A stretch of DNA of 64,000 nt from Elusimicrobiota bacterium (GTDB taxonomy: Bacteria > Elusimicrobiota > Elusimicrobia > F11), in contig JBGAON010000003.1 in NCBI GenBank assembly GCA_044221725.1, positions 128,001 through 192,000 on the forward strand. The letters run 5' to 3'. The notes under the pieces are model-generated. The model did not search any database. It had not been told where the DNA came from and saw only the letters and a program-made list of their open reading frames with translations. Both the position numbers and the translations under genes were made by a program. Of this stretch, positions 4,632 to 60,354 are shown piece after piece (the stretch's first letter is position 1; every line of letters begins with the position of its first letter).

Positions 4632-4820
4632 TTGTTTGTCTCTCTTCCGTCGAACCATAGTTCTATTTAGGGCTCCTTTAAAAAATTGTAAAGGTGACAT
4701 CTGTCATTTTCCTTGATGCGAATTGGTTTGGTTTCATCCAAAGTAATGCATCGGTGCTGCCACGGGTGGGGAGTGGCTTATTTGGTAACCTTATTTCGTT
4801 ATTTTGAGAGGGAGGTTTTT

Positions 4821-12403: not shown

Positions 12404-13074
12404 GGTTTCTGTTGGCTTTGGTGTTTGTTGGTTTGTCGGGCTGCGTCTCGATCGCTACGCATGAGCAGGCAATGAAAAAATGCCGCGATCAAGAAGAGGC
12501 GTTGAGTCAGTTGCGCGTACACGCGACCGATTTGGAGACAAAAAATACCGACCTCAACAAAGCGCTGTACGACAGCCAAACCGAGCACGCGCGGTTGCAG
12601 GGAGAAATGTCGGATGTTCGGAACACATACGACGAATTGGTCAAGCAATTGAAAGACAATATTGCGAATGGGGAAATAAGTGTGCGACAAACCGACAAAG
12701 GGCTCACGGTCGCGATGGGCAACGAAATCCTGTTCGCATCGGGCCAAGCGGAACTTCAGCAACGGGGAAAGAAAGTTTTGATGCAGGTTGCTTCGATTAT
12801 TAATAAACAAACGGATCGGCTGGTCCAAGTTGAAGGGCATACCGACAATATTCGGATTGCGGGTGGGTTGAAAAAGAAATTTCCGTCCAATTGGGATCTC
12901 TCTTCCGCGCGGGCAGCGTCAGTTGTCCGATTTCTGCAGGAAAAAGGATTGATAGATTCGTCACGTTTAATTTTGATGGCGTTCGCTGAGAATCATCCGA
13001 TTGCTGACAACAATACGCCCGAGGGACGGCAACAGAACCGACGCGTCGAAATTACGTTGATTTCCCAGCCCTGA
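12400..13074 (+). CDS. OmpA/MotB-domain lipoprotein with coiled coil
   Basis: Lipobox LSGC; coiled coil; LFASGQA, VEGHTDN, NWDLSSARA, NRRVEI. Confidence 0.85.
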   Translation: MRFLLALVFVGLSGCVSIATHEQAMKKCRDQEEALSQLRVHATDLETKNTDLNKALYDSQTEHARLQGEMSDVRNTYDELVKQLKDNIANGEISVRQTDKGLTVAMGNEILFASGQAELQQRGKKVLMQVASIINKQTDRLVQVEGHTDNIRIAGGLKKKFPSNWDLSSARAASVVRFLQEKGLIDSSRLILMAFAENHPIADNNTPEGRQQNRRVEITLISQP

Positions 13075-14985: not shown

Positions 14986-17900
14986 ATGGGACTGCGCAAG
15001 CCGTTGGTAGCTGTCTTGGCGCTTTTTTATTTGGTCGAGAACGTTGCCTTGGCGACGGCCAGTGAGTCCAATCTCTGGTCGGAACGCCGCAAATCGCTTC
15101 AAATAGCACAACTTCCTTTCCTGCCGGCAAACGCCGCGTTGCCCGATTCCAAAACGTTGTTGTCGACATTTCCGGAAATGCATCAAACGCTGCGGGCGTC
15201 CGTGGCCCACGGAACTCCGGATTGGGTGCAGGATGCAATTGCGGGGCACGCCACGGTTAATGAAACTTTTCTGTCGCAATCTCCGAACGCTCCGACGATC
15301 TTTGTTGTACAAGACGTTCATTTGCACACGGAAGCTCAGAGAAATATTGCCGCCGTGGTCGACGCGCTGACGAACGCAGTCGCAAAAAAAGGGACGCGGA
15401 TGACTGTGGGGCTCGAAGGGGCGCGCAGTGGTCCAATCGATCTCACGTTGTTCGACGTTAACGCTGACGCGGAGCTCGTTAAAAGTATTGCTACCGGTTT
15501 TCTAAATGTTCATGCCATTAGCGGTGTCGAAATGGCGGCTATCTCAACGCCTCGACAATTCAATCTAACCGGCGTTGAAAACATCGCCGATTACAACACC
15601 AACGTTCAAGCGCTGCGCGACAGTGCGCCCAAAAAGAAGACCGCGCTTGCCGCGCTGGATGAGCTAAGCCGAGAACTGACTGGGCTTAAGAAGAAATCAT
15701 TCGACGGCGAACTGCGGCGGTTTGACGAAACGAACGCGGCCTACGAGACCGGAAAGCTCGGTTTGCCCGCGTACGTGATGTATTTGGATTCAATCAGCCC
15801 CGCCACCACGCCGAACGTGCGTGAACTTGTTAATGCGGCGCTCATCGAAAGCTCGCTCAATTTCAAAAAGGTCGAAAACGAACGGAACCGGTTAATTCGT
15901 TCGCTTGTCGCGAATCTGTCGGAGCGGGAAACGAAATTGCTCATTGGGCTTACCGCGCTCTTGCGTTCCGGTGATGTGTCCGTGTCTTCCTATTATGAGC
16001 ATCTGAAAAACTTATCGGCGTCGCACGGTTTACCGCTGTCGCAGTTTCCCGAGATGAACCTGTATATCCAATACGTTTTGAAAACAGAGGCCATCCACCA
16101 CACGGCTCTTTTCGAAGAAATCAAACAGCTTGAAGAATTGGTCAGAACCAAGCTTGCTCGAACCGACGGAGAGCGCGACATGTTGGTGATGACGGCCGAT
16201 CAACATTTATTGTTGAAACTAATTGAAAGCTCAATGACCGAAAGCGAATGGCGCGCCTATGAAGAAAGGAAACCAGCGATAGAAAAAACGTCAGCACGGC
16301 TGGCCGGTTTGGGTATCCGCGTTCCTATTTCGGTTAAAGAAATGATCAGCGGGCTTCAGCCCTTCGAACGTTTTTACACCCAGGCGCTTCGCCGCAATGA
16401 CGCGATGGCGAAGAATATCCTAACGACCAGTCCAGACGTGGCTCTTCTTGTCGTGGGAGGTTTTCATACCAATGGCGTTACTTCACGCTTGAAAACTGCC
16501 GGTGCAAACGTTTATGTGTTAACACCCACTTTCACGGAGGGGGACGATGGGCCGTCCTCGTTGGAGTTCTTGGCTTCCGGACGCCTGCCGCTCGATGAAA
16601 TTTTTGTGGGACAAAAACTTTTTCTGCCGACGGCTCCCGTCATCGTGGGTGCTCACGCCGAGGTGATCGCCGCAATTCAAAAAGCCGTGGCTTTGGCCGT
16701 TGAACACCTTATTGCCGACCCTATTAAAGCGAGCTCAGTTCAAACGATAGACGGAGAAAAAGTGAAAGTGGTCCGAGATGGCTCGGGTAGCGCCGGGTTC
16801 TCGGTTACTTACAAAAATCAAAAATATCAGGTCTTGCCTGCGCACGGTAGAGATACAAAAATTTCGTGGAGTTCCATCGCCAACGTTACCGTGCCGCGAC
16901 TCGTCAGCTCGTTATTGGGTTTGGGAGCGGCCGTTTTCTACGTCGGGATGAAAGCGGGGCTGATTCACTATCCGCTTCAAGGTGTTGTGGCAACACTTTT
17001 AACAGCGACGCTTGTGTTTGTCGCCAGCCAGGTTGAAGAAGAAATCCATTACCGCCTACGCAAAGTCGAGTTCGCCCAACAGTTCAGGGAGAAGATGGCG
17101 CAGTTGGAAAATCAGCGAAATTTGGATAGCAAAGCCCTCAGGAAAGCACTCCGGGCGTATGCCGAACGAAATGCGCCTGTTCGGCGGCTTCTGCGCGTTG
17201 ACAATTCGGGCCCTTCCATTCGTGTCTATGCGTTTGGGCAGATCGGATTTTTTGCGGCATTATCGGCGGCCTCCATTGCGTTTGCTGCGTTTACGCCCAA
17301 TTTTTTGCGCTCCATCGGAATCCTTTTGCCGTTCGTGTTCTTATTCAGCTTTGGGAACGAGGAAGCATTGGCCGAGAACGGCTGGATTCGTCGTGGGCTG
17401 CGGATTTTGAGAACCAATGCGAAGGAAGGTTTTGGAGAAGCCGTAGCCGAACGTGCCGAACCGCTGTTCAAGCTCAATGATCCGATGCGTTTGACCAGGG
17501 GCCGGGACGGAAATTTAACTTTCGACACATTTACCACTGATCGCGCTGCGCATATGGCGGCGTTGAAACAAAACAAAGACGTGGAAATTGGGAATTTGAA
17601 AGAGGGGCTGTCCGCGCTGCTTCACGTGGCGTGGCTTGCAGCGAAAGACAAAAAGTTCGCACGCCGTTTTTTCGACAGAATTAAATGGGTCGGCGATAAT
17701 TCGGATTCCTTTGAGAAGGTGATCAAACCAATTTTTAGAAATGCCATCTTCTATGTCGATACCCACGTTGGCGATCTCAATTCGTTGCTTTACCAACATG
17801 CGGGTACCGAATATGAAGATATTGCTTTAAACGTGAGAGCTCCCGTCTATGCTGCTTTTGCGTTCGTAAATCGCCTTAAAGACGATGATTATGTTTCCGA

Positions 17901-19821
17901 TGATCAAAAGGAAAACTTTCTACAGAGTCTGAATCGCGTTCGCATTCAGGTGCCGGGACCAGCGGGGGGCGAGATCCTTTCGCCAGCGCAAATGATCGAA
18001 CGGTTTCAAAAGATCGAAAATCGAATTGTAAATGAGCGGTTCCGCCGAATGTCTCAAATTTTGAATAACGCGAATTACCGTTATGACACGCAATCTCGCG
18101 AAGCTAGCAAACGCGGTTGGAAAATTTCTCGGGGCACCTTTAAACGCATCTATTTCGCGGGGCCCGTCCGATTCATAAAGGGGGAATTGGCCGCTTTGGG
18201 TGGGCAACTCGATTCGTCTGTCCAGCGAACGAAAGGAGAATCCGCGGTCGTGACATTAATTCTTCAATTGGAAGAATACTCGAAGACAATATCCACGCAT
18301 TATTCGAATCCCAGCGCGGCGCAAATTGTTTTTGGGGCCTTGTTGTCGCGAATCGACGAAGGGCGCGACAATCTAAAAATTACCGCCTACGCGAATGCTC
18401 CGGGGGCTCTCTCTCGAAGAATGTGGATCGCCCTAAGAAAATGGGAAAGTTTTTCGAAAGGAAAAGAAAGTTCAAGGTCTAATCCCGCGGTCGCTGATCC
18501 GGATGCTGAAACGGCAGAAGAAGATGTTTTTGTGCACGATGGGGAATTCTTAAGGACTCTTGAACCGGTGACACCGGAGGTGCCAAATTCGAATAAAGAA
18601 ACAACCGTTAGCGGGAAATTCGCGAGCGAAGCAGCAAACCGTTCTGTCGGGCCCTCGTACGCGCACCTGATGCTGTCGTTGAAATCGTCACGAACGTATC
18701 GGTACGTAATCGGGGTACCGAAGGAAATTTATGCTATCGCGGGCGGGATTCTATTCATATTTGTTTCTGGCTCGAGTTCCGTGGCAATGTCACTGGCTGC
18801 GTTTCCTTCTGCAATGTTGGGGTATGTTTCTTCGACATCTGTATTTCGGGCCTTGCGAGCGTCGCGCGCTTCAAAGGGATTGATGTTGCCGACAGCTTGG
18901 CAGTTGGCGCTTAAGAAACGGATGGAAGAGCAAATGGAAATAGCGAGAGACTTGCTCGCGGTGGATGCAAACGTGGAAGTTATTTTTGAGAATGGAAATC
19001 GCGCGACGGCTCGCCTCGCTTACAAGCCCGGTGAAGATCGCCGGCCCGAATTTGTTCTCTTCGCAACCGAAGCTGGCCTGCAAAGAGTGCTTCGAGAAAG
19101 CGGAGACAATATGTACCTCCTTCGCCAAATGGCAAAAGCGGCGAGGGTCCCGTTGCCGGGCGACCTGACTCCCGTCCGTGACGCTGCGCGAATTGCCGAG
19201 ATGATCGCTGTTGGAAAAATCCTTGGCCGAAAATTTCCGAAAAAAATTCTTCAGAACTACGATGCCAACGTTTTTGAGGAATTTTTGGACAAAGGATTTG
19301 AAATAGTCGGAGGCAAATTCCTCAGCGAAGGCGCTGGCAACGTCATCAATCCATCCCGTCCGTACATAATTGATCGCGAATTATCGATTCCGGCAATCGC
19401 GGCACTTTTAAGAGGCATGGATCAAGTCCGCGGTTCCGAAGGAGTCAAATATTTGCCGGTTCTCATGAATTCTCAGGAGTTCTCGACGAAGTTGAAAAAA
19501 GCCGCCATGGACCCAAGCACTCGGGATGCTGCTCAATACGTCAGCCTACAGGGAAAAGCGAAAAAATTGGTGGTGTTGGGATTAGACTCGTTCAGCGGCA
19601 TACCCTACCTCGATCGCACCACGGTGAGTGGCGATGCGATCACCTATCTGTTGGAATCGTTTGCACGGCAAACCGGCCAAGCGGTCAATCCGGCCGTGTT
19701 ATCGGCTCGTCGTTTGACGTTGCCGGCCGATTTGGCCATTCAACTTATTTTTTCCGTCGACGTGATGGTGAAAGTGGGCGATAACCTTCGACTGGAACAA
19801 GTCGTGTTGGTGCAAGCCTAA
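14986..19821 (+). CDS. Large exported/membrane protein with N-terminal EreA/ChaN/TIKI-like domain
   Basis: 1611-aa ORF; signal peptide; QDVH...GLEG...RRNDAMA...GGFH pattern; internal hydrophobic segments. Product call is tentative. Confidence 0.7.
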   Translation: MGLRKPLVAVLALFYLVENVALATASESNLWSERRKSLQIAQLPFLPANAALPDSKTLLSTFPEMHQTLRASVAHGTPDWVQDAIAGHATVNETFLSQSPNAPTIFVVQDVHLHTEAQRNIAAVVDALTNAVAKKGTRMTVGLEGARSGPIDLTLFDVNADAELVKSIATGFLNVHAISGVEMAAISTPRQFNLTGVENIADYNTNVQALRDSAPKKKTALAALDELSRELTGLKKKSFDGELRRFDETNAAYETGKLGLPAYVMYLDSISPATTPNVRELVNAALIESSLNFKKVENERNRLIRSLVANLSERETKLLIGLTALLRSGDVSVSSYYEHLKNLSASHGLPLSQFPEMNLYIQYVLKTEAIHHTALFEEIKQLEELVRTKLARTDGERDMLVMTADQHLLLKLIESSMTESEWRAYEERKPAIEKTSARLAGLGIRVPISVKEMISGLQPFERFYTQALRRNDAMAKNILTTSPDVALLVVGGFHTNGVTSRLKTAGANVYVLTPTFTEGDDGPSSLEFLASGRLPLDEIFVGQKLFLPTAPVIVGAHAEVIAAIQKAVALAVEHLIADPIKASSVQTIDGEKVKVVRDGSGSAGFSVTYKNQKYQVLPAHGRDTKISWSSIANVTVPRLVSSLLGLGAAVFYVGMKAGLIHYPLQGVVATLLTATLVFVASQVEEEIHYRLRKVEFAQQFREKMAQLENQRNLDSKALRKALRAYAERNAPVRRLLRVDNSGPSIRVYAFGQIGFFAALSAASIAFAAFTPNFLRSIGILLPFVFLFSFGNEEALAENGWIRRGLRILRTNAKEGFGEAVAERAEPLFKLNDPMRLTRGRDGNLTFDTFTTDRAAHMAALKQNKDVEIGNLKEGLSALLHVAWLAAKDKKFARRFFDRIKWVGDNSDSFEKVIKPIFRNAIFYVDTHVGDLNSLLYQHAGTEYEDIALNVRAPVYAAFAFVNRLKDDDYVSDDQKENFLQSLNRVRIQVPGPAGGEILSPAQMIERFQKIENRIVNERFRRMSQILNNANYRYDTQSREASKRGWKISRGTFKRIYFAGPVRFIKGELAALGGQLDSSVQRTKGESAVVTLILQLEEYSKTISTHYSNPSAAQIVFGALLSRIDEGRDNLKITAYANAPGALSRRMWIALRKWESFSKGKESSRSNPAVADPDAETAEEDVFVHDGEFLRTLEPVTPEVPNSNKETTVSGKFASEAANRSVGPSYAHLMLSLKSSRTYRYVIGVPKEIYAIAGGILFIFVSGSSSVAMSLAAFPSAMLGYVSSTSVFRALRASRASKGLMLPTAWQLALKKRMEEQMEIARDLLAVDANVEVIFENGNRATARLAYKPGEDRRPEFVLFATEAGLQRVLRESGDNMYLLRQMAKAARVPLPGDLTPVRDAARIAEMIAVGKILGRKFPKKILQNYDANVFEEFLDKGFEIVGGKFLSEGAGNVINPSRPYIIDRELSIPAIAALLRGMDQVRGSEGVKYLPVLMNSQEFSTKLKKAAMDPSTRDAAQYVSLQGKAKKLVVLGLDSFSGIPYLDRTTVSGDAITYLLESFARQTGQAVNPAVLSARRLTLPADLAIQLIFSVDVMVKVGDNLRLEQVVLVQA

Positions 19822-19832
19822 AAAAGAATTAC

Positions 19833-21461
19833 CTAAAACGCCTGGCCAGTTCCAAACGTCACCACGAACTTCGCGTCATCGGGGTTGATGCGTTGCGGCC
19901 GATAGGACAAATCCAAGCGAATGATAACTTCGTTCGAAGAGTGGGTTAGCCCAAAACGCAATCCGGCGCCAATATCGCTTTTCAGTTTCGAGAGCGCTAT
20001 CGGTTCGTTTTCAGCCCACACATAACCTGTGTCATAAAATACCGCAGCGCCAAGCGAAACCAAGTTCCAGAGTTCGTCGATTAAAAACATTCGATCTTCA
20101 AGATTGAGGACCCAGCCTTTGTTCCCAATAATGCTGTCCACAGGAAACGCTCGCAATCCGTTGTCTCCGCCGAGTTTCACTTCGTTGTCCGGGTCCAGTT
20201 TGTCGCCCCAATCGGCGCGCGTGTTAATCACCATGGTGTGAAAGTCGCTGGCCCGGTTGTAGTGTTTAAGCTGAATGCCATAGCGCTGATTTTCGCCGTT
20301 TTCGAATGGATTTCGCCCCGAATAGGAGTAGCGCTGAAAAAGCATTTTCTGCTTCGACATCGTGCGTTTCTCAAACGAAGCTTCCGCTTCTGGTTTGTTG
20401 CCGGAACCGGTGAGAGCGTGAGGGGAAAAACCGGGGGACAGCGCGAGAATAGGACCGAGATTGATGTCTTCGACGCGCGTCATTTTTTCGAGATGAGTTG
20501 CTTCGATGAAGGCGCTGCGTTGCCCCATATAGTCGAGGAAAATCGTCTGAAGGTTTTCGCCTCCCGGAACATCCCGGCCCGGTGCCGTCTGACTGTTTCG
20601 TTCGTAATCGGTGACGATACGTTTGTAGCGCAAGCCCAAGCGGTTAACCACATCGCGCCCGCCGCCCAGTTTTATGCCGCCGAAAACCTCGTTCGTCTGT
20701 TTTGTTTGTTGAAAACGGGATACGAGCACATTGTTTTCGTGTTCGCTCAGGACTTGCTGTTGCCAATCATTCGTGGCCCGCGCGGACCATTTTGTGTCGG
20801 TGGCGTAAAACGGACGTTCGAGTTTTAATAGCCGCTCCTCGCCCTCGGTTTTATTCGTGAGAGACGCGTTTAGTTGCCACCGAGATCCGAGCAACCGAGG
20901 ATCAAAATAGGTGTATTGGCGTTGGGTAAAGTTATCGCCTCTCTTGTAAAAAATCCCGATGGTTTTACCGTATCCCAACAAATTCTTTTCTTTGAAACCA
21001 AATTCGGTGCTGTTAATTTTGTTTTGCCCACCGAGATTGATTTGCGGTTCGGTTGTCCATGCATCGTTCACATGCACGACGAGAGCAACCGAACCGTCGC
21101 GCTGAGGAAACTTGGCTACGCGTGCCGCTCGAATAAAAGAAAGCGCGCGAAGATTCCTCTCGGTTTCGCTGAGCAAGAAAGGATCCAAGCGGTCGCCCAC
21201 TTTAAATAAAAGTTCTTGGCGAATAACTTCTTCCTTGGTCTTTATGTGCAGGAAGTTGATGGTGTTATAAGGAAACCGGTTCAACGACACGTTTGTGTCC
21301 ATGTCGAAGATATCGGTGCCCCGAATGGTAATCCGCGAAATAACCGGAGAGGATTTGGACGTTGCTGCGGCAGCCCTTATTGCAAACGTACTTCCGATAA
21401 GAATCGCTACGAAGAACGACCGAAAAAGCGCCGAGGATGATGCGAAGGTATTTCCGAGCAA
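19833..21461 (-). CDS. Omp85 (BamA/TamA family) protein
   Basis: Signal peptide; POTRA-like TKEEVIRQELL...ETERNLRAL; EKNLLGYG; LGGDNGLRAF lid-lock motif; FYDTG; C-terminal GQAF. Confidence 0.85.
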   Translation of the reverse strand: MLGNTFASSSALFRSFFVAILIGSTFAIRAAAATSKSSPVISRITIRGTDIFDMDTNVSLNRFPYNTINFLHIKTKEEVIRQELLFKVGDRLDPFLLSETERNLRALSFIRAARVAKFPQRDGSVALVVHVNDAWTTEPQINLGGQNKINSTEFGFKEKNLLGYGKTIGIFYKRGDNFTQRQYTYFDPRLLGSRWQLNASLTNKTEGEERLLKLERPFYATDTKWSARATNDWQQQVLSEHENNVLVSRFQQTKQTNEVFGGIKLGGGRDVVNRLGLRYKRIVTDYERNSQTAPGRDVPGGENLQTIFLDYMGQRSAFIEATHLEKMTRVEDINLGPILALSPGFSPHALTGSGNKPEAEASFEKRTMSKQKMLFQRYSYSGRNPFENGENQRYGIQLKHYNRASDFHTMVINTRADWGDKLDPDNEVKLGGDNGLRAFPVDSIIGNKGWVLNLEDRMFLIDELWNLVSLGAAVFYDTGYVWAENEPIALSKLKSDIGAGLRFGLTHSSNEVIIRLDLSYRPQRINPDDAKFVVTFGTGQAF

Positions 21462-21474
21462 GGGGGGCTTGGTT

Positions 21475-21852
21475 TTATCGTGCGACCACTACGGTTCCTG
21501 TCGCTTGGTGGGTGCCGAGGACAAATGAATAAATGTAAATCCCTGATGGCGCCACACGTCCGCCGTCGTCCTTCCCATCCCACAGCATGGCCGTTTCCGT
21601 CGAGTCGAGCGTTGTGTGGGCAACTTTGGCTCCATTGAGGTCGAAAATGTTGCCCTCGAGCGGGAGGCCAGAGATGGTGTCATCGAATTTGAAGTATACA
21701 ACGTCGTTCAAAAGGTCTCCGTTCGGTGTAATGACGCGAGGGGCAACCTCAATTAACGAGATGCCGCCCAACGATTGGGAAGACGCGCCTGCAAACGCGA
21801 GCCACGGAAGCGTCAGTGCTGCCAGTGTGGCCAAAATAACTCGACTTTTCAT
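21475..21852 (-). CDS. Stand-alone T9SS-type C-terminal sorting / FlgD-Ig domain protein
   Basis: Signal peptide followed directly by ITPNGDLLND...IFDLNGAKV...WDGKDDGG...SGIYIY...GTVVVAR. Confidence 0.8.
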   Translation of the reverse strand: MKSRVILATLAALTLPWLAFAGASSQSLGGISLIEVAPRVITPNGDLLNDVVYFKFDDTISGLPLEGNIFDLNGAKVAHTTLDSTETAMLWDGKDDGGRVAPSGIYIYSFVLGTHQATGTVVVAR

Positions 21853-21890: not shown

Positions 21891-23468
21891 TTATTTTAAA
21901 AGTTTCATTTCGTCTTCCGCGGACGATACGTCGATACCGCTGCCTTTGTATTTCTGAATGATACGTTCGAGCATGCCACGACGCTCGTCCGTGCTCGCTC
22001 CTTGTTGAACGAGTCGACGATAGAAATTCATCGATAGATCAAAGTCCTTCTTCGCTTTGTTCTCGTCGCCCTTCAAGCTCTTTAATTCCCGTTGAACGGT
22101 CGACAAATCAACACCTTTGCCGGCAAATTCGGTCATAATTTTTTCGAGCGTGTGACGTTTCTCCTCGAGCGATATCCCTTGTGTTACTTTTTCGTTGTAA
22201 TCGGCGAGAGCCGCTGTGTAGCTGTTGAAGACAGTACGTTTTTGTGTCGTTGCCGTTTGAACGGCCGCGCGTTCTTTTTGCGCGCGCGCTTCTTGGTCTT
22301 GAGCTTCCTTGAGTGCGAGTTCCGACGCTTTGCGCTCGGCTTCCTGTTCGGCTTGCGTTTTTGCTTCGGTTAACGCATAGAGCTGTTTCTTGAGCCGATC
22401 GGCTTCCGCTTTCGCGTAGCGAGCTTCGGTTTCGGCGCGGATGCGGTCCTCTTTCTCTTTGATCAGTTGTTTTTCAATCGGATCGACCGGCGGCTTGCCG
22501 AGACGAACCGTCAACGAAACTTGCTGGATTCCAAGCGTACCGGAAATACCTTCGAGCGGGAGAACCGTTGCGTAGTCGAGTTGGATGGATTCCATCTTGT
22601 ATGACGCACCGAACGAAATTGATGAATAACTGCGGGAAGCTGAAGCCGCTCCTGCGCGCAATCCAAAACCGTTTTTGAACCATTTTTCTCCGCCAAGCGC
22701 GAAACGTAGATTGTTGTCGACGGATGTCCAGTTCGTCACTTCGACGCCAATGCAGCCCGAACGCCAACGGCGCGCAATCGACCCGGTGTAGATAGCCGGC
22801 ACCTTGTCTTTGCCACCCCCCAGCCCGACGTCCGGACTGTTTATGTTGCGCGCGGTCAGCCCGAGAGCATACGCTTGATTAAGCCGATATTGAAAACCAA
22901 GGTCAAGTGCAACGGCCGATGCCGAGCGGCTTTTGGCGAGCAACGGGTCCGCGGTGCCAGTTGCATTTCCAGTGATGGGGTTGATTGCGTTCGAAGAATA
23001 TTCGTCCGAGCCGATTGATTTTTTTAGAAGTTTTACCGAACCACCAAAATTCCATTTGTGACGGAAGTCGCGTCCGTAGGTGATTCCAATCGATTCCTCT
23101 TTGTAGAGCCCCGGCAATTCCATGGATAGATAACTGGCGCCAATGCCGCCGTGTTTTCCAAGCTCGCCCAGCGGTTGGCCATAGCCAAGGAAAATGCGGC
23201 TGATTTGCGAATGATCGGAGAGACCCGGATACAGCTGCGAATAGTAGCTGCCGATCTCCGGACGGTTCAGTTGAAGAATTCCGGCCGGGTTGTAGTAAAC
23301 AGAGTAGACATCGTCCACGATAGCGGAATAGGCTTCTCCCATTCCTGCGGCGCGGCCACCGACAGGAAGAGGCTCAAAAGACGCGTAAGAAATGGCAGAA
23401 AACCACAGGGATAGAAACGCAGGAAGAAGAAGGGTGTACGAGAACTTGAATTCCGCTGTGAACTTCAT
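21891..23468 (-). CDS. PorV/PorP-like beta-barrel with coiled-coil stalk and two 53-aa C-terminal repeats
   Basis: Signal peptide; GGRAAGMGEAY...YYNPAG; barrel ending DYA...QQVSLTVRLG; E/K/A-rich coiled coil; duplicated helical domain. Confidence 0.75.
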   Translation of the reverse strand: MKFTAEFKFSYTLLLPAFLSLWFSAISYASFEPLPVGGRAAGMGEAYSAIVDDVYSVYYNPAGILQLNRPEIGSYYSQLYPGLSDHSQISRIFLGYGQPLGELGKHGGIGASYLSMELPGLYKEESIGITYGRDFRHKWNFGGSVKLLKKSIGSDEYSSNAINPITGNATGTADPLLAKSRSASAVALDLGFQYRLNQAYALGLTARNINSPDVGLGGGKDKVPAIYTGSIARRWRSGCIGVEVTNWTSVDNNLRFALGGEKWFKNGFGLRAGAASASRSYSSISFGASYKMESIQLDYATVLPLEGISGTLGIQQVSLTVRLGKPPVDPIEKQLIKEKEDRIRAETEARYAKAEADRLKKQLYALTEAKTQAEQEAERKASELALKEAQDQEARAQKERAAVQTATTQKRTVFNSYTAALADYNEKVTQGISLEEKRHTLEKIMTEFAGKGVDLSTVQRELKSLKGDENKAKKDFDLSMNFYRRLVQQGASTDERRGMLERIIQKYKGSGIDVSSAEDEMKLLK

Positions 23469-23628: not shown

Positions 23629-24564
23629 TTAATTTGTGCTCGAAGAACCCAATTTGTAACCGATGGAGATCCGGTGGGAGAGTCCAAGATCACCGAAAGG
23701 TGAGACCGAATAGTCTAAATTAAACCGGTTGAGTTGCATGCCCAAACCAGCGTTAAGGCCCGCCAGTCCGCCCAGATCCGCGCTCTGCCCGGGAGTTGCT
23801 TCGTAACCGCCGCGAACCGCGAACGCGGGGGTGAGGTGATACTCTGCACCGAGGTGCAGGGAGACGTTTGCGTCGTTCGGTTTGGAGGCTTCGAGCGCCA
23901 CGAGGAGCCGTTCGTTTAGCACATGTGTCGACGCTCCAAGCCGAACCGTGGCGGGCAGCGGTGAAGAGTCCTTCACGAGCTTCATGCTAGGTCCCAGATG
24001 TTGAACAACACCGCTAAAATTCATGTTGTTTCTTTTGTAGAGAATGCCAAGGTCCGCGGCGAAAGTGGACGCTTTTTCGCTCTCAATCGATTCCGAAACA
24101 TATTTCAAATTCGCGCCCACCAACAAGTTGTCCTGAATTTTCTTGGCTGCTGAGATGCTTCCAGCGAGCGATCCGGCATTGAACGATCCGTCTTTTGTGT
24201 CGCTCGCGGTATACCGGTCGATCGTTCCATAATCAAGACGGTAAACGGATGCGCCCAACACAAAACCTGCCATCGGTGATACGGCGCCGATATATTGAAA
24301 ATTTGTGTTATCAAAATGGCTGTTCTGCATGGCGCCAATTTCGGTGGATTCAAGTTGAGCCAATCCGGCCGGATTCCAGTACGTTGCCGTCACATCGTCA
24401 GCGACGGAAGAAAACGCGTTTGCCATGCCGGTTGCGCGGGCGCCGACGCTGAGTTTCAAAAACTGGGCCGCGGAAGTACCCGTCGCGAAAGTGTTTGATG
24501 CGGCCATCATCATAATCGCTGCTATCACCGCTGCCACTGAGCTGTTCGTATTCGTCCTCTTCAT
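23629..24564 (-). CDS. PorV/PorQ family outer-membrane beta-barrel
   Basis: Signal peptide; AQFLKLSVGARATGMANAF...YWNPAGL; DYSVSPFGDLGLSHRISIGYK. Confidence 0.85.
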   Translation of the reverse strand: MKRTNTNSSVAAVIAAIMMMAASNTFATGTSAAQFLKLSVGARATGMANAFSSVADDVTATYWNPAGLAQLESTEIGAMQNSHFDNTNFQYIGAVSPMAGFVLGASVYRLDYGTIDRYTASDTKDGSFNAGSLAGSISAAKKIQDNLLVGANLKYVSESIESEKASTFAADLGILYKRNNMNFSGVVQHLGPSMKLVKDSSPLPATVRLGASTHVLNERLLVALEASKPNDANVSLHLGAEYHLTPAFAVRGGYEATPGQSADLGGLAGLNAGLGMQLNRFNLDYSVSPFGDLGLSHRISIGYKLGSSSTN

Positions 24565-24760
24565 GCTCAAAGCCTAAAAGAGAACCATGACAGATCAGTG
24601 ACCCCAAAAAGATAGATACGAGAAACTTGCGGCACGTAAAAGAGGAATTATGCGAGGAGACCGGAGAGCAACAGGAAGCCAATGTGAGCTTTAAGTTTAA
24701 GCAATCGAGGCGTCATTACGAGGCAATTGCTGGATTGTAAAAGGTCACATCAGGATTTTC

Positions 24761-26236
24761 TTAGCGGAGAACGGCGATTTTGCCTTGTTTTTTGTGACCG
24801 GCGGAATCGGTGATCAGAAAATAATAAACACCGGACGCTACTTGCTTTCCATCGTCGTTTACGGCCATCCATTTCAAGGTCGTTGAGCCAACAGCCGCTT
24901 CTTTATTAAAAACTGGTTCGCCGGCCACTGTAAAAATTTGCACTTTTGCGCCGGGCGTCAGATTCGTGAAGGTGACGTCGCTATGGCCCAAATTTGAGTT
25001 TGGCTTGAACGGATTCGGATAGGCGTGCGCGTCGTCCAGTGTAGAAGGGGTTATTCCACTGCTGGTCGGACCCGAACCTGACGCGCTGGAAAATACCGTG
25101 GAGACGCGCAATTGGACGTCCTGTGCTGCGATGGCTTGCGCCGTTTGGCTTGTGTTTTGGGGTATTAGCACCTGAAAATTTTCTTGGGCGCTGTCGAAGT
25201 TGCCGTCCACCGGAGTTGCGATAGCCCATGTTCCGTCTTTTAGTCGATACTCCACCTTCGCAATCGTATCGACGGAGAAACCATATCCTTGGGAGTTCGA
25301 CTGGCGTGGCAGAATCGACACGGCTGCTTGGCCCGTAAAAGCGGTGCTTCCCGACGTTGCGGACTGGGACGGTTGTGGCGTGAGTGTGACCCTTGGAGAT
25401 TGATCGAGAATATCATCACGACCGTTTTTGTCGCTATCGCGCCACCCGATCGCGAGCTTGGCCCAATCGTCGAGCCCCCAACGAATACCACCGCGCATGA
25501 TAGAGTCTGGGGCGTTCGCCTTTGAAGAGTAAGCATGGTTGCCGTTTATCGTCGGAAAATAGCCGTCGGTATAATCGTTCGGGCCGCTGGCTCCGGCGTA
25601 TTCGTCGAGCGCGTGGAAGATATGTCCCATTTCGTGCGCCGCTACCACGTTCATGTTGCTGATGCCATATCCGTCGTTGTCGTATGTCATTACAGCAAAT
25701 GGTCCGCCGAGATAAGCATACGCAAACAACCCGTCCGCAAACATTCCATTGGAATCCTTTAGACTATCGACGACAAATATGACGTAGCCCCAATCTGTCT
25801 TGTACTGTTTACGAAGGTCGTTTACATAAGCGCGTGTCGCGGAAAACCGTGTTCCGCTGTAACCCACCTTGCTCATGATGTCGGGGATCCAAAGCGACTC
25901 GTCGTAATAAGGTCGATTTATAGGCTCGTATTTTGTGGCGACCGTTCGTGAAACAACCGTAAAGCTGACAGGCGACCTGGGATTTTGCTTTGTCCACCAA
26001 TCGAGACCCGACATAATTTGGCTGAGCACCTGCGCTTTGCGATCGTCGCTCCAGTCTTCGGTGTTCGCGTCCTGGGTTCCATCCGATTCCGGGAAAATCA
26101 CAGAGACCACGACGCTTCCCATTAAAAAATCGCTTGTGTAATTCGATTGGTCGAGGCCGACGCTGCTCAGTTTCGCATGCACCGGTTGCATCATCGTGAG
26201 CGCCAGCGCCGCTGCAATGACTGTTTTCTGTTTCAT
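24761..26236 (-). CDS. Secreted metzincin-like Zn protease with T9SS type A-like C-terminal domain
   Basis: Signal peptide; HEMGHIFHALDEY zinc motif; SIM Met-turn; CTD AYPNPFKP...IFTVAGE...SGVYYFLI...GKIAVLR. Confidence 0.82.
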   Translation of the reverse strand: MKQKTVIAAALALTMMQPVHAKLSSVGLDQSNYTSDFLMGSVVVSVIFPESDGTQDANTEDWSDDRKAQVLSQIMSGLDWWTKQNPRSPVSFTVVSRTVATKYEPINRPYYDESLWIPDIMSKVGYSGTRFSATRAYVNDLRKQYKTDWGYVIFVVDSLKDSNGMFADGLFAYAYLGGPFAVMTYDNDGYGISNMNVVAAHEMGHIFHALDEYAGASGPNDYTDGYFPTINGNHAYSSKANAPDSIMRGGIRWGLDDWAKLAIGWRDSDKNGRDDILDQSPRVTLTPQPSQSATSGSTAFTGQAAVSILPRQSNSQGYGFSVDTIAKVEYRLKDGTWAIATPVDGNFDSAQENFQVLIPQNTSQTAQAIAAQDVQLRVSTVFSSASGSGPTSSGITPSTLDDAHAYPNPFKPNSNLGHSDVTFTNLTPGAKVQIFTVAGEPVFNKEAAVGSTTLKWMAVNDDGKQVASGVYYFLITDSAGHKKQGKIAVLR

Positions 26237-54476: not shown

Positions 54477-54562
54477 AAAATCCTCCAAAAATGGGTTGAA
54501 ACCACGCCGCTTCTACCATAAATACGTAGAGAACTTCAGGTTTTGGCCACGCATCGGTGATT

Positions 54563-55501
54563 ATGAGAAAAACGAGTCTAATTTTGGCGGTGTTTATGGT
54601 TTTTCCGGCTATCAGCGAAACACACGCTTGGAGCTGGGATTCTCCCGAAAATGTGATGCCCACATTGCGAGACGATCTCGACCGAGAAATTGCGGCGTAC
54701 CGTCAGCAGGTTTTAAACGGAATGGCTGTGCACGACCGGATCATCGCGCTCGACCGGCTAATTGACAACTACAAACCAATGGGAATAAATGTCGCCGAGC
54801 TTGAAACCGAACGGTCCCGCCTTGTGCTTGAAGAAAAACAGCAACAGTTGCGCACCTCTCAAGCTCAGGATCAAGCGACCATTCTTTTTGAACGCGGTGT
54901 TTCCGAGTACAAAGAAGGTCAATACGAAACCGCGCGTCAAACATTCCTCGAAGCCGAACGTCTTCTCCCTCAAGATTCTGCGATTAAGGAAACGCGTCGA
55001 CGATTGTCGAATGTGACGCCAATTCTCGAAGTCGAAGTCGGAGCCGGAAAAGATTCCCAGCTCATCCGTCTCGCGGTGACTCGTTATCTTGAAAACGATC
55101 CAAAGAGAGCGCTGAACGCATTGATTTACGCAAACGATAAAAAAATAGCGCGACCTGAAATTCCACGTCTTCGTCGTCTCATTGAAACCGATCATCCCGA
55201 AATCGAACCGCCGGCACTTCCAGCCGGTTTGTCGCTCGTGGATCACAAGTTGCAACTCACGCTCGAGGCGATTTACGACGGACGCTACCTGTCGGCCATC
55301 ACCGAGTGCACCGATGTTCTCGATTTGGAACCGACCAACGTAATGGCGCTTACGCGACTGGGGTCCGCTTATTTTGCCATGAACGAGCGCGAGAAAGCCA
55401 AGCAGATTTGGACGAAAGCGCTGCAATATGATCCGAACAACGAAGTTCTGAGAAAATTCTTGTATGGCTCAAAAGGATCTTCCCGTGTTGAAACGCGTTA
55501 A
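54563..55501 (+). CDS. Secreted TPR protein with N-terminal ~50-aa helical domain
   Basis: Signal peptide ending THA; TPR repeats (LFERGVSEYKEGQY...; ALTRLGSAYFAM...WTKALQYDP). Confidence 0.82.
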   Translation: MRKTSLILAVFMVFPAISETHAWSWDSPENVMPTLRDDLDREIAAYRQQVLNGMAVHDRIIALDRLIDNYKPMGINVAELETERSRLVLEEKQQQLRTSQAQDQATILFERGVSEYKEGQYETARQTFLEAERLLPQDSAIKETRRRLSNVTPILEVEVGAGKDSQLIRLAVTRYLENDPKRALNALIYANDKKIARPEIPRLRRLIETDHPEIEPPALPAGLSLVDHKLQLTLEAIYDGRYLSAITECTDVLDLEPTNVMALTRLGSAYFAMNEREKAKQIWTKALQYDPNNEVLRKFLYGSKGSSRVETR

Positions 55502-57194
55502 CCAATATCTTCTGTTCATCGTTTTTTCCGCTGTCGTTCTGCTTGGCGGTTTTGCGAACGCCGAACTTTCGCTCGATAGCGAACGCCTGGATCTTGAAAT
55601 GAGAATGCAAAAGCGCGTGGAAGAAGCGCTTGGAAAAATTTTGCCGGAGGGGCAGTTCGTTGTCGTTATTCGCGTGGAGCCACTCGCCATTAAAGAATCC
55701 ACAAGCAAGAACGAGAAAGACGACAACGGTTTTTATCTGCCCGGTGTGCCCGTGAAAAAAAGTTTCGACTCGACCGGTGAGCAAATGCAAAACCTCGTCG
55801 ACACGCTAAAACCTGAATCAAAAATTTTCCAGCGTTTCATCAAACGCATCCAAGTCACCCTCGTTCTCGATCAGGCGACGGCGGATGATGTTGTGTCGAA
55901 GGTGCGCGAGCTCACGCGTCAAATGCTCAGTCTTGATTCCGAACGGGGCGATACGCTTGATATTCAGAAAACTGCGTTTTCGAAACCCACCGAGGTTCAA
56001 CTTTCGCCAACCGGAATTCTTAAATTGCAGAAAGACTTAAAAAATTACTGGCTGCTCATTCTCCTTGTGCTTGTTATTTTCTGCATCATCGTTTTTTTCT
56101 TGTTCATGTTTGGGCCGCTTCGCGGTTTCTTGAACAACTTCGTGCAAATCTTACCGACGCTCAAATCACAGGAAGCGGCGCGCGTCCGCATGGAGATGCC
56201 ATTTATTCCACCGTACATGAATCCGTACGGTTTGCCGGGACCGAACGGTCCCACCGTGGCCGCAGGAAATGCGGCGTTCTCAGGTTCGTTGCAAGTTGAG
56301 AATCCCAACAAAACCATCCTGCCGTTCGGATTTATTCGGGAAGATCATCTCGGAAATTTGGCAATTTTGTTGGCGCGTGAAGTGCCCGAAAAAGCGGCTG
56401 TCGTGCTCGGCTATTTGCCCCCCGATTGGATCAGCCGTGTACTGGCGCGTTTGGATCAGACAATGCAGTCGGATATTGCTGCTCATCTCGCTACAACCCG
56501 GCAGCTTCTCCCGGAACAAGTGGAAGACATCGAGCAGGATTTAAAACGCCGGCTCGATTATCTCGTGGGCGGGCCGGACCGCATCTTCGCGATTTATGAA
56601 TCACTCGAGCCTGAGGGGCAGAAGCGAATGCTCGATAGTCTTAAGGAATCACGCCCCGAAATTGTCGAAGAGCTTCGGCAACGAACGCTTTTGTTTGAGG
56701 ATCTTGAGCGCTTGGATTCGCCCGCGCTCAAATCTGTTTTGCGTGAAGTGGATTTGCAAACGATTGTGACCAGCTTGAAAGGCGTTACGGAGTCCTTCAA
56801 GACCCGCATCTTGGAACACATGTCCGAGGGCAAGGCAGAGATCGTAAGGCAAGAGCTTGACCTGAGCGACGCCAACGCCGTCGGAAAAGCCACGATGGAA
56901 GCGCAGCGTAAAGTGGTGCTTTTGGCCAAACGCCTTGAGCGCGAGGGACACATCCATATCCCGCACGTGACCGAGGGCGCCCCGCCAACGCGGTTCGGCC
57001 CATCGTTGCGTTCGACGCTCAAGTTGCCACCGGGGCTCAAGATTGACGATACCCTTCCGGTCGAACCGATTTCTTCGGAAACTCCGGCTCCGAAGGACAA
57101 CATCCAAGACCGTATTCGCAAATTTATTAGCCGACGCAACGACGATCGGGCCGAAAGATACCCGACCGACAAGCCGCCAAAAGATAGGAGATAA
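55464..57194 (+). CDS. FliF-FliG fusion protein (ring-building domain, TM helix, FliG middle and C domains)
   Basis: FliF-like LEMRMQKRVEEALGKIL and IKRIQVTLVLD...LDSERGDTLDI; TM helix; FliG-like EVPEKAAVVLGYLP, FEDL..LD, HMSEGKA, EAQRKVV...LEREGHI; start may be the GTG at 55485. Confidence 0.8.
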   Translation: MAQKDLPVLKRVNQYLLFIVFSAVVLLGGFANAELSLDSERLDLEMRMQKRVEEALGKILPEGQFVVVIRVEPLAIKESTSKNEKDDNGFYLPGVPVKKSFDSTGEQMQNLVDTLKPESKIFQRFIKRIQVTLVLDQATADDVVSKVRELTRQMLSLDSERGDTLDIQKTAFSKPTEVQLSPTGILKLQKDLKNYWLLILLVLVIFCIIVFFLFMFGPLRGFLNNFVQILPTLKSQEAARVRMEMPFIPPYMNPYGLPGPNGPTVAAGNAAFSGSLQVENPNKTILPFGFIREDHLGNLAILLAREVPEKAAVVLGYLPPDWISRVLARLDQTMQSDIAAHLATTRQLLPEQVEDIEQDLKRRLDYLVGGPDRIFAIYESLEPEGQKRMLDSLKESRPEIVEELRQRTLLFEDLERLDSPALKSVLREVDLQTIVTSLKGVTESFKTRILEHMSEGKAEIVRQELDLSDANAVGKATMEAQRKVVLLAKRLEREGHIHIPHVTEGAPPTRFGPSLRSTLKLPPGLKIDDTLPVEPISSETPAPKDNIQDRIRKFISRRNDDRAERYPTDKPPKDRR

Positions 57195-57196
57195 CC

Positions 57197-57982
57197 ATGG
57201 ATTTGATGACGCTTCTCGGATGGGTCGTGGGTCTTGGAGCCATTGGATGGGTCCTTCAAGAAGGTGGCACCATTCACTTTTTTGTGAACGTTCGTGCGAT
57301 TGTGTTGGTGTTCGGCGGAACTTTTGGCGCAACGCTGATCACCTATCCGTGGGGAATTTTGAAGCGCATGCCGTCGTCACTTCTTTATTTCATATTCCCT
57401 GGACGTCGCGAGTCGGCGGACAGTTTGATGTCGCGCTTGTTGGCGTTGTCGAATCGCGCGCGTCGGACCGGCATGGAGAGCCTTGATCTCGACATGCGCG
57501 GCACACGCGATCATTTTCTCGCGAATGGTTTAAAAATGATTGCCGACGGATTGCCGCCAAACGTGGTTCGTTCGAATCTCGAGAAGGAAATTTATTTCAT
57601 TCGCTTGCGGCACGCCGAAATTTCAAACGTCTTTAGAAATATGGCCACGTACGCGCCCATTTTTGGTTTGCTGGGAACCTTGGTGGGCGTGGTCGAAGTC
57701 ATGCTAAATCTAACGGATCCGCGCACGATGGGCATGCACATGGCTGTCGCGATGACCGCCACGTTCTACGGAATTTTCGGCGCAAACTTTTTGTTTCTGC
57801 CGGTCGCTGGGAAGCTGCAATCTTATTCGGAGCAAGAAATCTTTCTTAAAGAAGTAACGATCGAAGGAATCTTGTCCATTCAGCGCCAAGAAGTTCCGGC
57901 CATCTTAACCCGTCGCCTGGAGTCCTATCTGAATCGGCGCAGCCGTACACGTATCGCCGATGAACGGAGAGACGCCGCTTGA
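57197..57982 (+). CDS. motA: MotA/PomA-family stator A subunit
   Basis: MDLMTLLG, VFGGTFGA, ARRTG..SLD, FL..GL.MIADG, APIFGLLGTLVG, ATFYG, LPVAGKL, EGILSIQ. Confidence 0.9.
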   Translation: MDLMTLLGWVVGLGAIGWVLQEGGTIHFFVNVRAIVLVFGGTFGATLITYPWGILKRMPSSLLYFIFPGRRESADSLMSRLLALSNRARRTGMESLDLDMRGTRDHFLANGLKMIADGLPPNVVRSNLEKEIYFIRLRHAEISNVFRNMATYAPIFGLLGTLVGVVEVMLNLTDPRTMGMHMAVAMTATFYGIFGANFLFLPVAGKLQSYSEQEIFLKEVTIEGILSIQRQEVPAILTRRLESYLNRRSRTRIADERRDAA

Positions 57983-58635
57983 TTCATCGATTGATTCGTT
58001 TCAAAAACGATTCCCGACTCGAAACTATTTGGCTTACGATTTACGCGGATCTCATCACGAACATGATGCTGGTTTTCCTTGCGTTGTACGGATTAACTGT
58101 AATGGGAGATGACGCGCTCACACGTGCGGTTCAGTCGATGAGCTTGAACGATATTTACTCAATGAAGGAAACCAATCTTGATTTTTCTGATATCGCGCCG
58201 GCCTTGCGGCAGAAATTCAAGCAGCAAGCCGATATAAAGATTACCGAGGAAGTGGGTGTGGTGCACATTGAATTTGGGGAACAAATTCTTTTTGATTCCG
58301 GTCGGGCTGTGCCAAAAGGAAGCGCGATCGAGCCGGTCAGAGTGGTTGCCGATCTGATTAAACCGTTGCCGCACACCATTGTCGTTGAAGGACACACGGA
58401 CTCCAGTCCGTTGCAGCACGGAAATGGTTATCGCGACAATTACGAGCTCTCATTGGCGCGCTCAATGTCCATCGTTAATCTCCTGATCGCCGACGGTATT
58501 CCCGCGGATCAAATTGCCGCGGCTGCGTATGGCGAATATCGTCCGCGGGCTTCCAATAGCACGGCGTTGGGGCGTGGCGTCAATCGTCGGGTGGAGATCG
58601 CACTCTTTAAGGATTTCGGTTATGTCCATCGATGA
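57979..58635 (+). CDS. motB: MotB-family stator B subunit 1
   Basis: WLTIYADLIT TM helix with the conserved Asp; OmpA-like LFDSG, VEGHTD, NYELSLAR, NRRVEI. Confidence 0.85.
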   Translation: MIHRLIRFKNDSRLETIWLTIYADLITNMMLVFLALYGLTVMGDDALTRAVQSMSLNDIYSMKETNLDFSDIAPALRQKFKQQADIKITEEVGVVHIEFGEQILFDSGRAVPKGSAIEPVRVVADLIKPLPHTIVVEGHTDSSPLQHGNGYRDNYELSLARSMSIVNLLIADGIPADQIAAAAYGEYRPRASNSTALGRGVNRRVEIALFKDFGYVHR

Positions 58636-59338
58636 GAACGAAGAGGGATTAGGGGCGTCCGAGCCGCTTCCTCTGTTTGAGGAAGACGACGCAGACGCGC
58701 ATGCGTCCGAAGCCGGTGAGGACGTTGACTCAGAATACATTCTGCGACGGCAACAGCCCGAGCGTCGAGCTCCGCGCCAACTTTGGCTCATTTCCTATTC
58801 GGACTTTATGACAATCCTTATGATTTTCTTTCTCGCAATGTACGGTTATACGTATCTTGCCAAGGCCGCTCTGTTAAAGAATGAAAAGAAAATTTCGAAT
58901 TACTCGCAGTTCACGACGCAGATACAAGAATTGCAGAAATCGCTCGGCAGTCAGCTACGAGTTCAAAACGACGTGGACAAAATCGTGATACAGCTCAGCG
59001 ACAAAATTCTTTTTGCCAGCGGCAGCGCCTCCGTCGAACCGGCCGCCGGGCCCACACTTGAAGAATTGGCCAATTCAATTAAGCTGGTGGACGGTGACGT
59101 CATCGTTCAAGGCCACACCGACAATGTTCCGATTCGTGGCGGTCGTTACAGGTCGAATTGGGAATTGTCAACGGCCCGAGCGTTTTCAGTAATCAAAAGA
59201 TTAACCGAGGCGGGCGTGCCCGCGCAGCGTCTGGCCGCGTGGGGACTTGGAGAGAACAGGCCGATCACGGACAATTTAACGCCCGAGCATCGCGCCGAGA
59301 ACAGACGCATTGAAGTCGTGATTTTGAAGAAGAAGTAA
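58622..59338 (+). CDS. motB: MotB-family stator B subunit 2
   Basis: Acidic N-terminal tail; WLISYSDFMTILMIFF TM helix with Asp; LFASGSA, QGHTDN, NWELSTARA, NRRIEV. Confidence 0.87.
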   Translation: MSIDENEEGLGASEPLPLFEEDDADAHASEAGEDVDSEYILRRQQPERRAPRQLWLISYSDFMTILMIFFLAMYGYTYLAKAALLKNEKKISNYSQFTTQIQELQKSLGSQLRVQNDVDKIVIQLSDKILFASGSASVEPAAGPTLEELANSIKLVDGDVIVQGHTDNVPIRGGRYRSNWELSTARAFSVIKRLTEAGVPAQRLAAWGLGENRPITDNLTPEHRAENRRIEVVILKKK

Positions 59339-59349
59339 AAAGGGGAATT

Positions 59350-60354
59350 ATGGCCGGTGAGCGCATCCTTATAATAGATGACGATGAGCAAGTCGCTTCC
59401 TATTGTCGTTTGGCGTTCACGCTGGCCGGATACCAGGTGGAGTGGATTAAAGACGGGCGCCAGGCGGTGCAGAAAGTGCGTGAAATGATTCCCGACGCCG
59501 TCATTCTCGATTTGAAGTTGCCCGGCATAAACGGTTTCCGAATTTGCGAACAACTTCGCTTGGAGCCTCAGACGCGCGCGATCCCTATTATCGTCGTGAG
59601 CGGCAGCTGGAAAGATTCGCAGGATCGCATTCGTTCGATCGAGGTCGGCGCCGATGATTTTCTCACAAAGCCGTTTGACGCCGAAGAACTGATTGCGCGG
59701 ATCAAACGCATGTTGCAGCGAAAGAAAGTTGATATGGGGCACAACCCGCTCACGGGTCTTCCCGGAAATCTTGCCATCGAAGAAGAGGCGCGGCGCCGGC
59801 TTGCACGGAAAGATCCGCTCGCGTTCGCGTATATCGACCTCGACAATTTCAAAGCCTACAACGATGTGTATGGCGTAAAACAAGGCGACAAAGTTATTCG
59901 ATTGCTAGCCGACTTGTTGGTCCAAGCCACGAAGCGGTGGGGAAATCAGGACGATTTCATTGGCCATGTTGGCGGAGACGATTTTATCGGAATGACAACG
60001 CCGGACAAAGCGCAAGCCGTGTTCGAATGGATTGCCAAGCGCTTCGACGAACGGATTGCCGCCTATTATTCGGAAGCCGATTTAAAAGCGGGTTGTATCA
60101 CGGCCAAAGACCGTCAAGGAAACGTGAAGAAATTCCGATTCGTTTCTGCTTCGATCGTTTATTTGACCGACAAAAACATTGAGACGAATCAATACCCGTT
60201 ATTGATTCAGGCGCTCACCGAAATGAAAGGATTTGTTAAACACACCATGGAACGCAAAGGCGGAAGCGTCGTGTTTCGGGATCGGCGTAGCACCGAAGAG
60301 CCGCCATCCAAAACGATTTCTGCCCCGATTCCAAAAACAAAACCCGCCGCTTAG
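59350..60354 (+). CDS. Response regulator with diguanylate cyclase domain (REC-GGDEF)
   Basis: ILIIDDD, ILD phosphoacceptor, KPF; PLTGLPGN, DLDNFKAYND.YG...GD, GHVGGDDF. Confidence 0.9.
   Translation: MAGERILIIDDDEQVASYCRLAFTLAGYQVEWIKDGRQAVQKVREMIPDAVILDLKLPGINGFRICEQLRLEPQTRAIPIIVVSGSWKDSQDRIRSIEVGADDFLTKPFDAEELIARIKRMLQRKKVDMGHNPLTGLPGNLAIEEEARRRLARKDPLAFAYIDLDNFKAYNDVYGVKQGDKVIRLLADLLVQATKRWGNQDDFIGHVGGDDFIGMTTPDKAQAVFEWIAKRFDERIAAYYSEADLKAGCITAKDRQGNVKKFRFVSASIVYLTDKNIETNQYPLLIQALTEMKGFVKHTMERKGGSVVFRDRRSTEEPPSKTISAPIPKTKPAA

Follow-up and report, generated by a model that had tools for sequence, protein, structure and literature searches.

The window analyzed here is a stretch of 64,000 nucleotides (G000:C5:128001-192000) from an Elusimicrobiota genome of 2.82 Mb assembled in 5 contigs and 94% complete. 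On its forward strand lies a motor operon that includes a gene for a TPR adaptor (54557..55501, the start codon being probably the ATG at 54563). The adaptor is made up of a signal peptide, a domain of ~55 amino acids with three predicted helices at the mature N-terminus (54659..54832), hereafter domain X, a long helix and a TPR module, hereafter Y (residues ~100-305). The same strand carries a FliF-FliG fusion (55464..57194) composed of an N-terminal hydrophobic segment, a FliF RBM3-like periplasmic domain, a membrane helix (residues 197-215) and the middle and C-terminal domains of FliG; a flagellar-type MotA (57197..57982), whose best models, MotA/PomA/MotP, all scored below cut-off; and two MotB proteins (57979..58635 and 58514..59338), each with a membrane Asp motif and an OmpA domain, the second of which probably starts downstream of its listed TTG. 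Directly 3' of the motor genes is the gene of a response regulator with a GGDEF domain (59350..60354, forward strand), a position suggestive of a tie to the motor. The closest named relatives of the FliF-FliG protein are all from Elusimicrobiota, including Ca. Obscuribacterium magneticum. Promoter and terminator scans of the operon gave no signal above shuffle level.

A cluster of outer membrane barrel genes occupies the reverse strand of the same window. It includes a PorV/PorP-like barrel (21891..23468; NF033709 E 1.2e-19, 71 bits against a cut-off of 90) in which the barrel proper (residues ~30-325) is followed by a coiled coil and two C-terminal copies of domain X, repeat 1 at 22071..22241 and repeat 2 at 21894..22064. 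Its neighbors are a 125-aa protein (21475..21852) consisting of a signal peptide and a T9SS-like C-terminal sorting domain (CHU_C, 29.4 bits; cut-off 27), a plain PorV/PorQ-family barrel (23629..24570; NF033709 168 bits, cut-off 90), an exported HExxH-motif protein with a T9SS-like sorting domain (24761..26236) and, at the end of the cluster, an Omp85-family protein (19833..21461). A mini sorting-domain protein of this kind adjoins the barrel-X genes in most of the loci examined.

The original prediction linked the two loci through X. Both peptides were found where it had placed them, and the core of the adaptor copy (54677-54823, forward strand) aligns without gaps to repeat 2 of the barrel with 17 of 49 residues identical. 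When the full proteins were compared by BLASTP, the X stretch scored E 4e-6 and the next stretch E 2.0; the local alignment score of 76 was reached by none of 3000 barrel shuffles (mean 35.9, SD 5.0, maximum 65). Searching the 22,846 six-frame ORFs with the 49 residues as a single query placed the barrel first after the self-match, at a whole-protein E of 3.9e-5; no single domain of it did better than E 0.11, however, a weak value that made profiles necessary. A profile of 13 TPR-protein copies then retrieved the barrel at a domain E of 3.3e-6 (next protein, E 0.13) and a profile of 45 barrel copies retrieved the TPR protein at 1.7e-6 (next unrelated ORF, E 0.87), both against the 22,846 ORFs, while the best E with either profile on reversed ORFs was 2.3. 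Compared directly, the two profiles matched with a probability of 97.9 and an E of 4.5e-13. The shuffles, the reciprocal profiles and the reversed control together rule out chance or a coiled-coil artefact as the cause of the similarity; the significance anticipated by the original prediction was thus borne out in both directions, at E ~1e-6 and with 0/3000 shuffles reaching the score. From signal peptides and topology, the X copies of both adaptor and barrel are predicted to be periplasmic.

The other X copy of the barrel is identical to the last repeat at 17 of 49 positions and to the TPR copy at 8 of 49. Listing the carriers, as had been proposed, yielded three proteins in this genome: the adaptor with one copy, the window barrel with two, and a second barrel of 772 aa, also with two (G000:C1:324657-326972). 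A quick tree of X over 57 columns, most of which stays open (58 of 95 inner branches), places 16 of 17 adaptor copies in a clade of their own (SH-aLRT 99) that is untied to the window barrel.

AlphaFold modeled the adaptor with a mean pLDDT of 91 and gave X helices at residues 6-29, 34-51 and from 56 onward, the third of which extends unbroken into the TPR region as a single long helix. Two residues, Y14 and L31, never vary among 58 copies, and G21 and E51 hardly do. No Pfam family matched the window copy, and the best Pfam match to the 58 copies was an unrelated family at E 0.003. A search of PDB sequences with the X profile found no solved structure resembling it (best E 0.009, spanning 18 positions), the ESM Atlas gave no usable match, and structure searches with the full adaptor model, which hardly probed X, returned TPR proteins only. 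The domain is rare: 261 of 1.84 billion representatives matched at E 0.001 or better. Among the best 150 of these 261, whose architectures were classed, 72 proteins carry X with a PorV-like barrel, 8 consist of X and a TPR module with no barrel detected, 2 have X fused to a FliF-FliG protein (P0109, P0132), 15 have an N-terminal X ahead of another domain, 41, mostly fragments, end in X with no detected barrel, and 12 are other pieces. A taxon label was found on 2 of 10 carriers looked up, both Elusimicrobiota.

Among the N-terminal-X proteins inspected, most (~11 database proteins) consist of a signal peptide, one or two X copies, a proline-rich linker and a small outer-membrane barrel, the latter called from sequence, two weak Pfam matches and one Atlas structure search. 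This layout mirrors that of OmpA and speaks for a reading in which X is a generic envelope anchor that binds the wall as a LysM or OmpA domain does and the adaptor is a fixed bushing, so that a shared X would by itself imply no coupling. The barrels of this genome end variously in LysM, an OmpA-type domain, TPR or X, and, in the accessible part of PMC10202324, PorE of P. gingivalis, which binds peptidoglycan, is described as a requirement of a type B substrate, both of which would suit an anchor. Nevertheless, a wall anchor fused to the rotor, as X is in P0109 and P0132, would stall the ring; some adaptors (P0119, P0141) carry LysM in addition to X-Y; and a Pfam wall-binding family matched none of the 58 X copies. 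We regard the anchor reading as unlikely on the sequence comparisons at hand.

X is also found on two Wza-like proteins, one multiheme cytochrome-like protein and one HEAT-like protein. We note that P0142, P0150, P0016, P0126 and P0144 place X on Wza-like polysaccharide export proteins, a multiheme cytochrome-like protein and zinc-finger repeat proteins, the last of which carry it behind their membrane helices; the N-terminal-X proteins inspected all appear compatible with a periplasmic X. The expectation that X would keep to proteins of the two loci therefore stands in part: exported small barrels, Wza and cytochrome proteins carry it too, yet 155 of the 164 genomes with X have FliG. Judged by its distribution, X is best described as a family mark of envelope proteins that mostly travel with the motor, and need not imply contact between the window barrel and the window adaptor.

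Flagellar rotors and stators are generally taken to serve a flagellum. The FliF-FliG fusion of the window has FliG_M and FliG_C (Pfam) above cut-off, and its predicted model matches the middle and C-terminal folds of FliG at E 5e-12 and an RBM3-like fold at E ~1e-3. YscJ_FliF_C is weak in the fusion (E 0.0044), and PF01514, as a sign of a full FliF MS-ring (RBM1-3), is unmatched there, whereas a flagellar FliF encoded by G020 does match PF01514 (E 7e-59). MotA retains the Arg-rich motif of a flagellar MotA of G020; the FliG torque helix reads SEGK here and SERV in a flagellar FliG of the phylum, a difference that weighs against the motor reading, the Arg of this helix and the Arg-rich motif of MotA being residues that we take to be functionally important. 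The window MotBs have the plug-region Asp together with the MotB plug and OmpA domains. The likeness to the flagellar motor core (PDB 6sd1, 1lkv and 8ucs among the structure matches) lies in the FliG folds, the RBM3-like fold and MotA/MotB; the differences are that FliF is cut to its RBM3-like domain and fused to FliG, and that FlhA and the rod were not found. Specifically, FlhA and Flg_bb_rod were not found in this genome (94% complete) or in four others, while four control genomes passed the cut-offs; with neither FlhA nor the rod genes detected, the absence of a flagellum is supported. A weak FlhA match (E 0.07) was dismissed, as it sits inside the FliG domain.

Over the phylum, FlhA was found in 9 of 401 genomes and FliG_C in 175 of 401; within a set of 41 genomes, a single genome may have as many as six FliG-domain genes. 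Five genomes (G007, G015, G148, G333, G339) have FlhA and long FliF-FliG fusion ORFs together, and the fusion motor is on that account a system separate from the flagellum.

The TPR arm offers a second connection between barrel and rotor. This genome encodes a further PorV-like barrel whose tail matches Y, the C-terminal 200 residues of the adaptor, at E 3.4e-27. The gene of this barrel-Y protein lies in a second motor locus (G000:C3:209206-267721, L073), between that of an 8005-aa sorting-domain giant and a second FliF-FliG gene, 3' of which follow two coiled-coil genes, MotA and MotB. Since Y matches the tail of a barrel encoded 5' of a rotor gene, the window adaptor is a barrel-less version of barrel-Y. 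We also note at L073 that the giant is the second of a pair of adjacent ORFs (8031 and 8005 aa) that may be one gene broken by a split or frameshift, its second part ending in the sorting domain, that the coiled-coil proteins are long, and that a thioredoxin-like protein follows MotB.

In 11 relatives belonging to other classes, barrel-X and FliF-FliG/MotA/MotB genes lie in one cluster, ordered as cargo, barrel-X(X), mini sorting-domain protein, barrel-Y and FliF-FliG, with MotA, MotB, MotB usually following; in some of them a kinase or a giant cargo gene separates the mini sorting-domain protein from barrel-Y. The clusters of G041, G135, G175 and G105 were selected for adjacency in match lists. 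Among 20 further X loci, 17 of them from other classes and not a random sample, the joint cluster was found in 7; 7 ended at a contig end, two of these right after barrel-Y, and 6 had no rotor in the 9-16 kb visible downstream. Variants of the connection include a barrel-Y-X protein encoded immediately 5' of the rotor (G019), the order barrel, X-Y, rotor (G032), an X at the periplasmic N-terminus of FliF-FliG itself (P0109, P0132) and adaptors in which LysM is added to X-Y (P0119, P0141). The claim that adaptor and barrel loci belong to one machine is supported by the joint clusters of the 11 relatives, the X-FliF-FliG fusions and the 155 genomes that share X and FliG, with the TPR arm a firmer barrel-motor link than X. 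In one further locus (L137, G270:C4:10001-30000), the barrel-Y and FliF-FliG ORFs are fragmented, through either decay or assembly error, in a genome that is 85% complete.

X was found in 164 of the 401 genomes of the phylum, 155 of them with FliG; X alone occurs in 9, FliG alone in 20 and neither in 217, where the FliG counts include flagellar FliG. Two families, f7 and f18, are made up mostly of small genomes and presumably of gut symbionts; they have X in 1 and 0 genomes and FliG in 2 and 1, respectively. Outside these two reduced families the corresponding numbers are 154 with both, 9 with X only, 18 with FliG only and 13 with neither (Fisher p 7e-7, overstated because the genomes are related). 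The absence of X from 206 of the 207 genomes of these motor-less families argues further against a generic anchor, although their small genomes mean that the joint absence of X and FliG may reflect general gene loss. In favor of an anchor, barrel-XX outlasts the rotor: G035 (99% complete, 3 contigs) and G361 (98%, 4 contigs) have it without a FliF-FliG fusion, and G028 and G194 keep it with a separate flagellar-type FliG only. The proposed bond of X to the motor locus accordingly holds as a tendency, the two mostly co-occurring, and is broken in G035 and G361. One candidate counter-case, G394 (FlhA, no FliG), was set aside as a possible assembly gap, its genome being in 460 contigs.

The barrels of the window belong to a wider set of type IX-like parts. 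A 1806-aa protein encoded elsewhere in this genome (G000:C4:344397-349814; L072:6397-11814) matches the SprA/Sov model TIGR04189 at E 1.7e-31 with 108.5 bits (cut-off 200); its sequence suggests a divergent homologue, and phmmer found no PDB match for it. The SprA-like N-terminus was recognized in 353 of 401 genomes and in 281 of the 293 high-quality ones, the giant barrel mostly giving one match per genome across the phylum. Of six PorV/PorP-family barrels submitted, three scored above the NF033709 cut-off. Local profiles count 28 barrels and 25 sorting-domain proteins in this genome, the latter being predicted cargo; CHU_C is above cut-off for the 125-aa protein, and type A/B matches to the others are weak.

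As had been predicted, genes for GldLM-GldKN were not found. GldM was found in none of 221 genomes (with a control set devoid of any T9SS organism), and searches of five genomes, run without a positive control, returned no GldL above cut-off, no GldN, no true GldK and no PorU C25. Two matches were rejected along the way: one to the GldK model, at 94 of 350 bits, was read as a sulfatase-modifying-factor protein, and a weak one to GldL (E 0.03) lay within an unrelated 1611-aa protein. These negative searches, and the position of the motor genes among T9SS-like genes, would be in keeping with FliF-FliG and MotAB energizing SprA-like export in place of GldLM-GldKN. The small-genome lineages would then have switched energizer, and the single MotA/ExbB-family gene present in each of four complete or near-complete motor-less genomes could substitute for the motor there. 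We consider this improbable, as the SprA-like translocon is found in 113 of 118 genomes of f7 and 51 of 89 of f18, where FliG is limited to 2 and 1, and is also found without FliG in G014, G024, G035 and G361. Since 113 of the 118 f7 genomes retain the translocon and just 2 have FliG, the motor is not an obligate replacement for GldLM-GldKN, and that part of the original prediction is not supported. Moreover, the tally of one translocon against 28 barrels, 25 cargo proteins and two rotor loci has a cargo-specific look, as does a further locus (G000:C5:478616-492842), where the genes of ExbB, a pair of ExbD-like proteins and a TPR protein adjoin those of a PorV-like barrel and of a sorting-domain cargo of 1973 aa. 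This Ton-type ExbB-ExbD-ExbD locus with its own barrel and cargo suggests that motors may be cargo-specific. The SprA-like pore persists in small genomes with neither FliG nor a detected Gld motor, and a pore without this motor raises the question of its power source.

The reading that we lean toward is that of an accessory, ion-driven motor of flagellar descent that acts on giant surface proteins held by barrels and for which X provides a periplasmic tether. The FliF-FliG fusion would build an inner-membrane ring turned by MotA5B2 stators, and Y would dock onto its periplasmic face. Where Y is no longer joined to a barrel, as in the window, X would provide the hold on the outer-membrane side, most likely through docking between proteins. 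Cargo would leave through the SprA-like pore and be held by its own barrel, export itself being independent of the FliF-FliG/MotAB motor, and the barrel-held cargo would then be moved or put under load, most likely in the service of surface motility or of the handling of adhesins. Going by these sequence relationships, X likely helps tether a flagellum-free rotary motor to large surface proteins, and the motor is probably an add-on and not the engine of type IX-like secretion. A bolder proposal, which we put forward tentatively and hold to be a good deal less probable, is that free-living Elusimicrobiota possess a third kind of bacterial gliding engine, in which the one-chain FliF-FliG ring would drive carrier barrels and giant adhesins through the TPR arm, and X would serve as a docking module shared by rotor, adaptor and barrels.

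The response regulator-GGDEF gene that follows MotB in the window, and the HAMP histidine kinases within or beside the G041 and G032 clusters, could instead point to a load sensor, in which adhesin tension would alter stator engagement and be read by the neighboring kinase and GGDEF proteins. This is a link by position, and the presence of up to six FliG-domain genes per genome together with giant cargo would suit mechanical work equally; we find a sensor quite improbable and retain the accessory motor as the preferred reading.

Set beside the T9SS and gliding machinery of Bacteroidota as presented in the accessible part of PMC10202324, the Elusimicrobiota system is alike in its SprA-like giant barrel, its PorV/PorQ-family barrels and the encoding of cargo beside its own barrel. 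Both also have an ion-driven stator of a family known as 5:2. They differ in that Bacteroidota have GldL/M/N/K and PorU, none of which was found here (searches without a positive control), and in that the Elusimicrobiota motor is a flagellar MotAB with a FliF-FliG ring in place of GldLM. The same source, in its accessible part, describes T9SS export as restricted to Bacteroidota, with the GldLM motor and the GldKN ring as core subcomplexes (PMC10202324), whereas the Elusimicrobiota translocon often occurs without the motor.

PorE has TPR repeats, and the adaptor differs from it in having neither a lipoprotein signal nor an OmpA domain, in carrying X instead and in being encoded with the rotor. 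The resemblance to the PorE/PorP/type B CTD arrangement of P. gingivalis lies in the provision of a periplasmic partner for barrel-held cargo (PMC10202324, accessible part).

Uzun et al. (10.1101/2022.07.08.499144) reported that free-living Elusimicrobiota have motAB and fliG but no flagellar structural genes, and called the role of motAB and fliG unclear; the accessible text of that paper makes no mention of a FliF fusion, barrels, domain X or a SprA-like pore, and a figure on motility in it may be relevant to the motor. The Elusimicrobiota motor-barrel system is likewise not mentioned in the accessible parts of a MotAB phylogeny (PMC12505986), a 2026 gliding review (PMC13104615) and a force-transducer paper (PMC12204202). 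No prior description of the machine or of X was found in the literature searched, whose coverage left out most subscription papers. Domain X is new in this sense, and the machine is an undescribed one that falls outside the flagellum by membership and is not classifiable as a T9SS. FliG in 175 of 401 Elusimicrobiota genomes against FlhA in 9, wired to T9SS-like barrels, provides a testable answer for the orphan motAB and fliG genes noted in 2022. The natural FliF-FliG fusion offers a way to study the flagellar motor core working alone, and X and the TPR arm are concrete interfaces at which coupling can be sought.

The second X barrel of this genome lies in a locus (G000:C1:323340-339556, L074) that looks like a fibre operon; a run of similar small exported proteins with an SDTLTVT motif, a 2195-aa protein and a sorting-domain protein precede the barrel gene and a coiled-coil gene follows it. 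In four wastewater metatranscriptomes from one study, contigs span both window loci and their flanks patchily and at low depth, such that transcription and library DNA are inseparable. Rfam recognized four tRNAs and no riboswitch in the window. The window also encodes a PorV-like barrel with a C-terminal LysM (3375-4700) and a stand-alone protein with a coiled coil and a MotB-type OmpA domain (12400-13074); a local profile counts 11 MotB/OmpA-domain ORFs in the genome. Finally, positions 14986-19821 encode a 1611-aa protein with no Pfam match that belongs to a family of giant proteins with a short terminal motif such as SQA, QGA or VQA, other members of which, reaching 18,016 aa, are encoded at G000:C2:219180-273227 and elsewhere.
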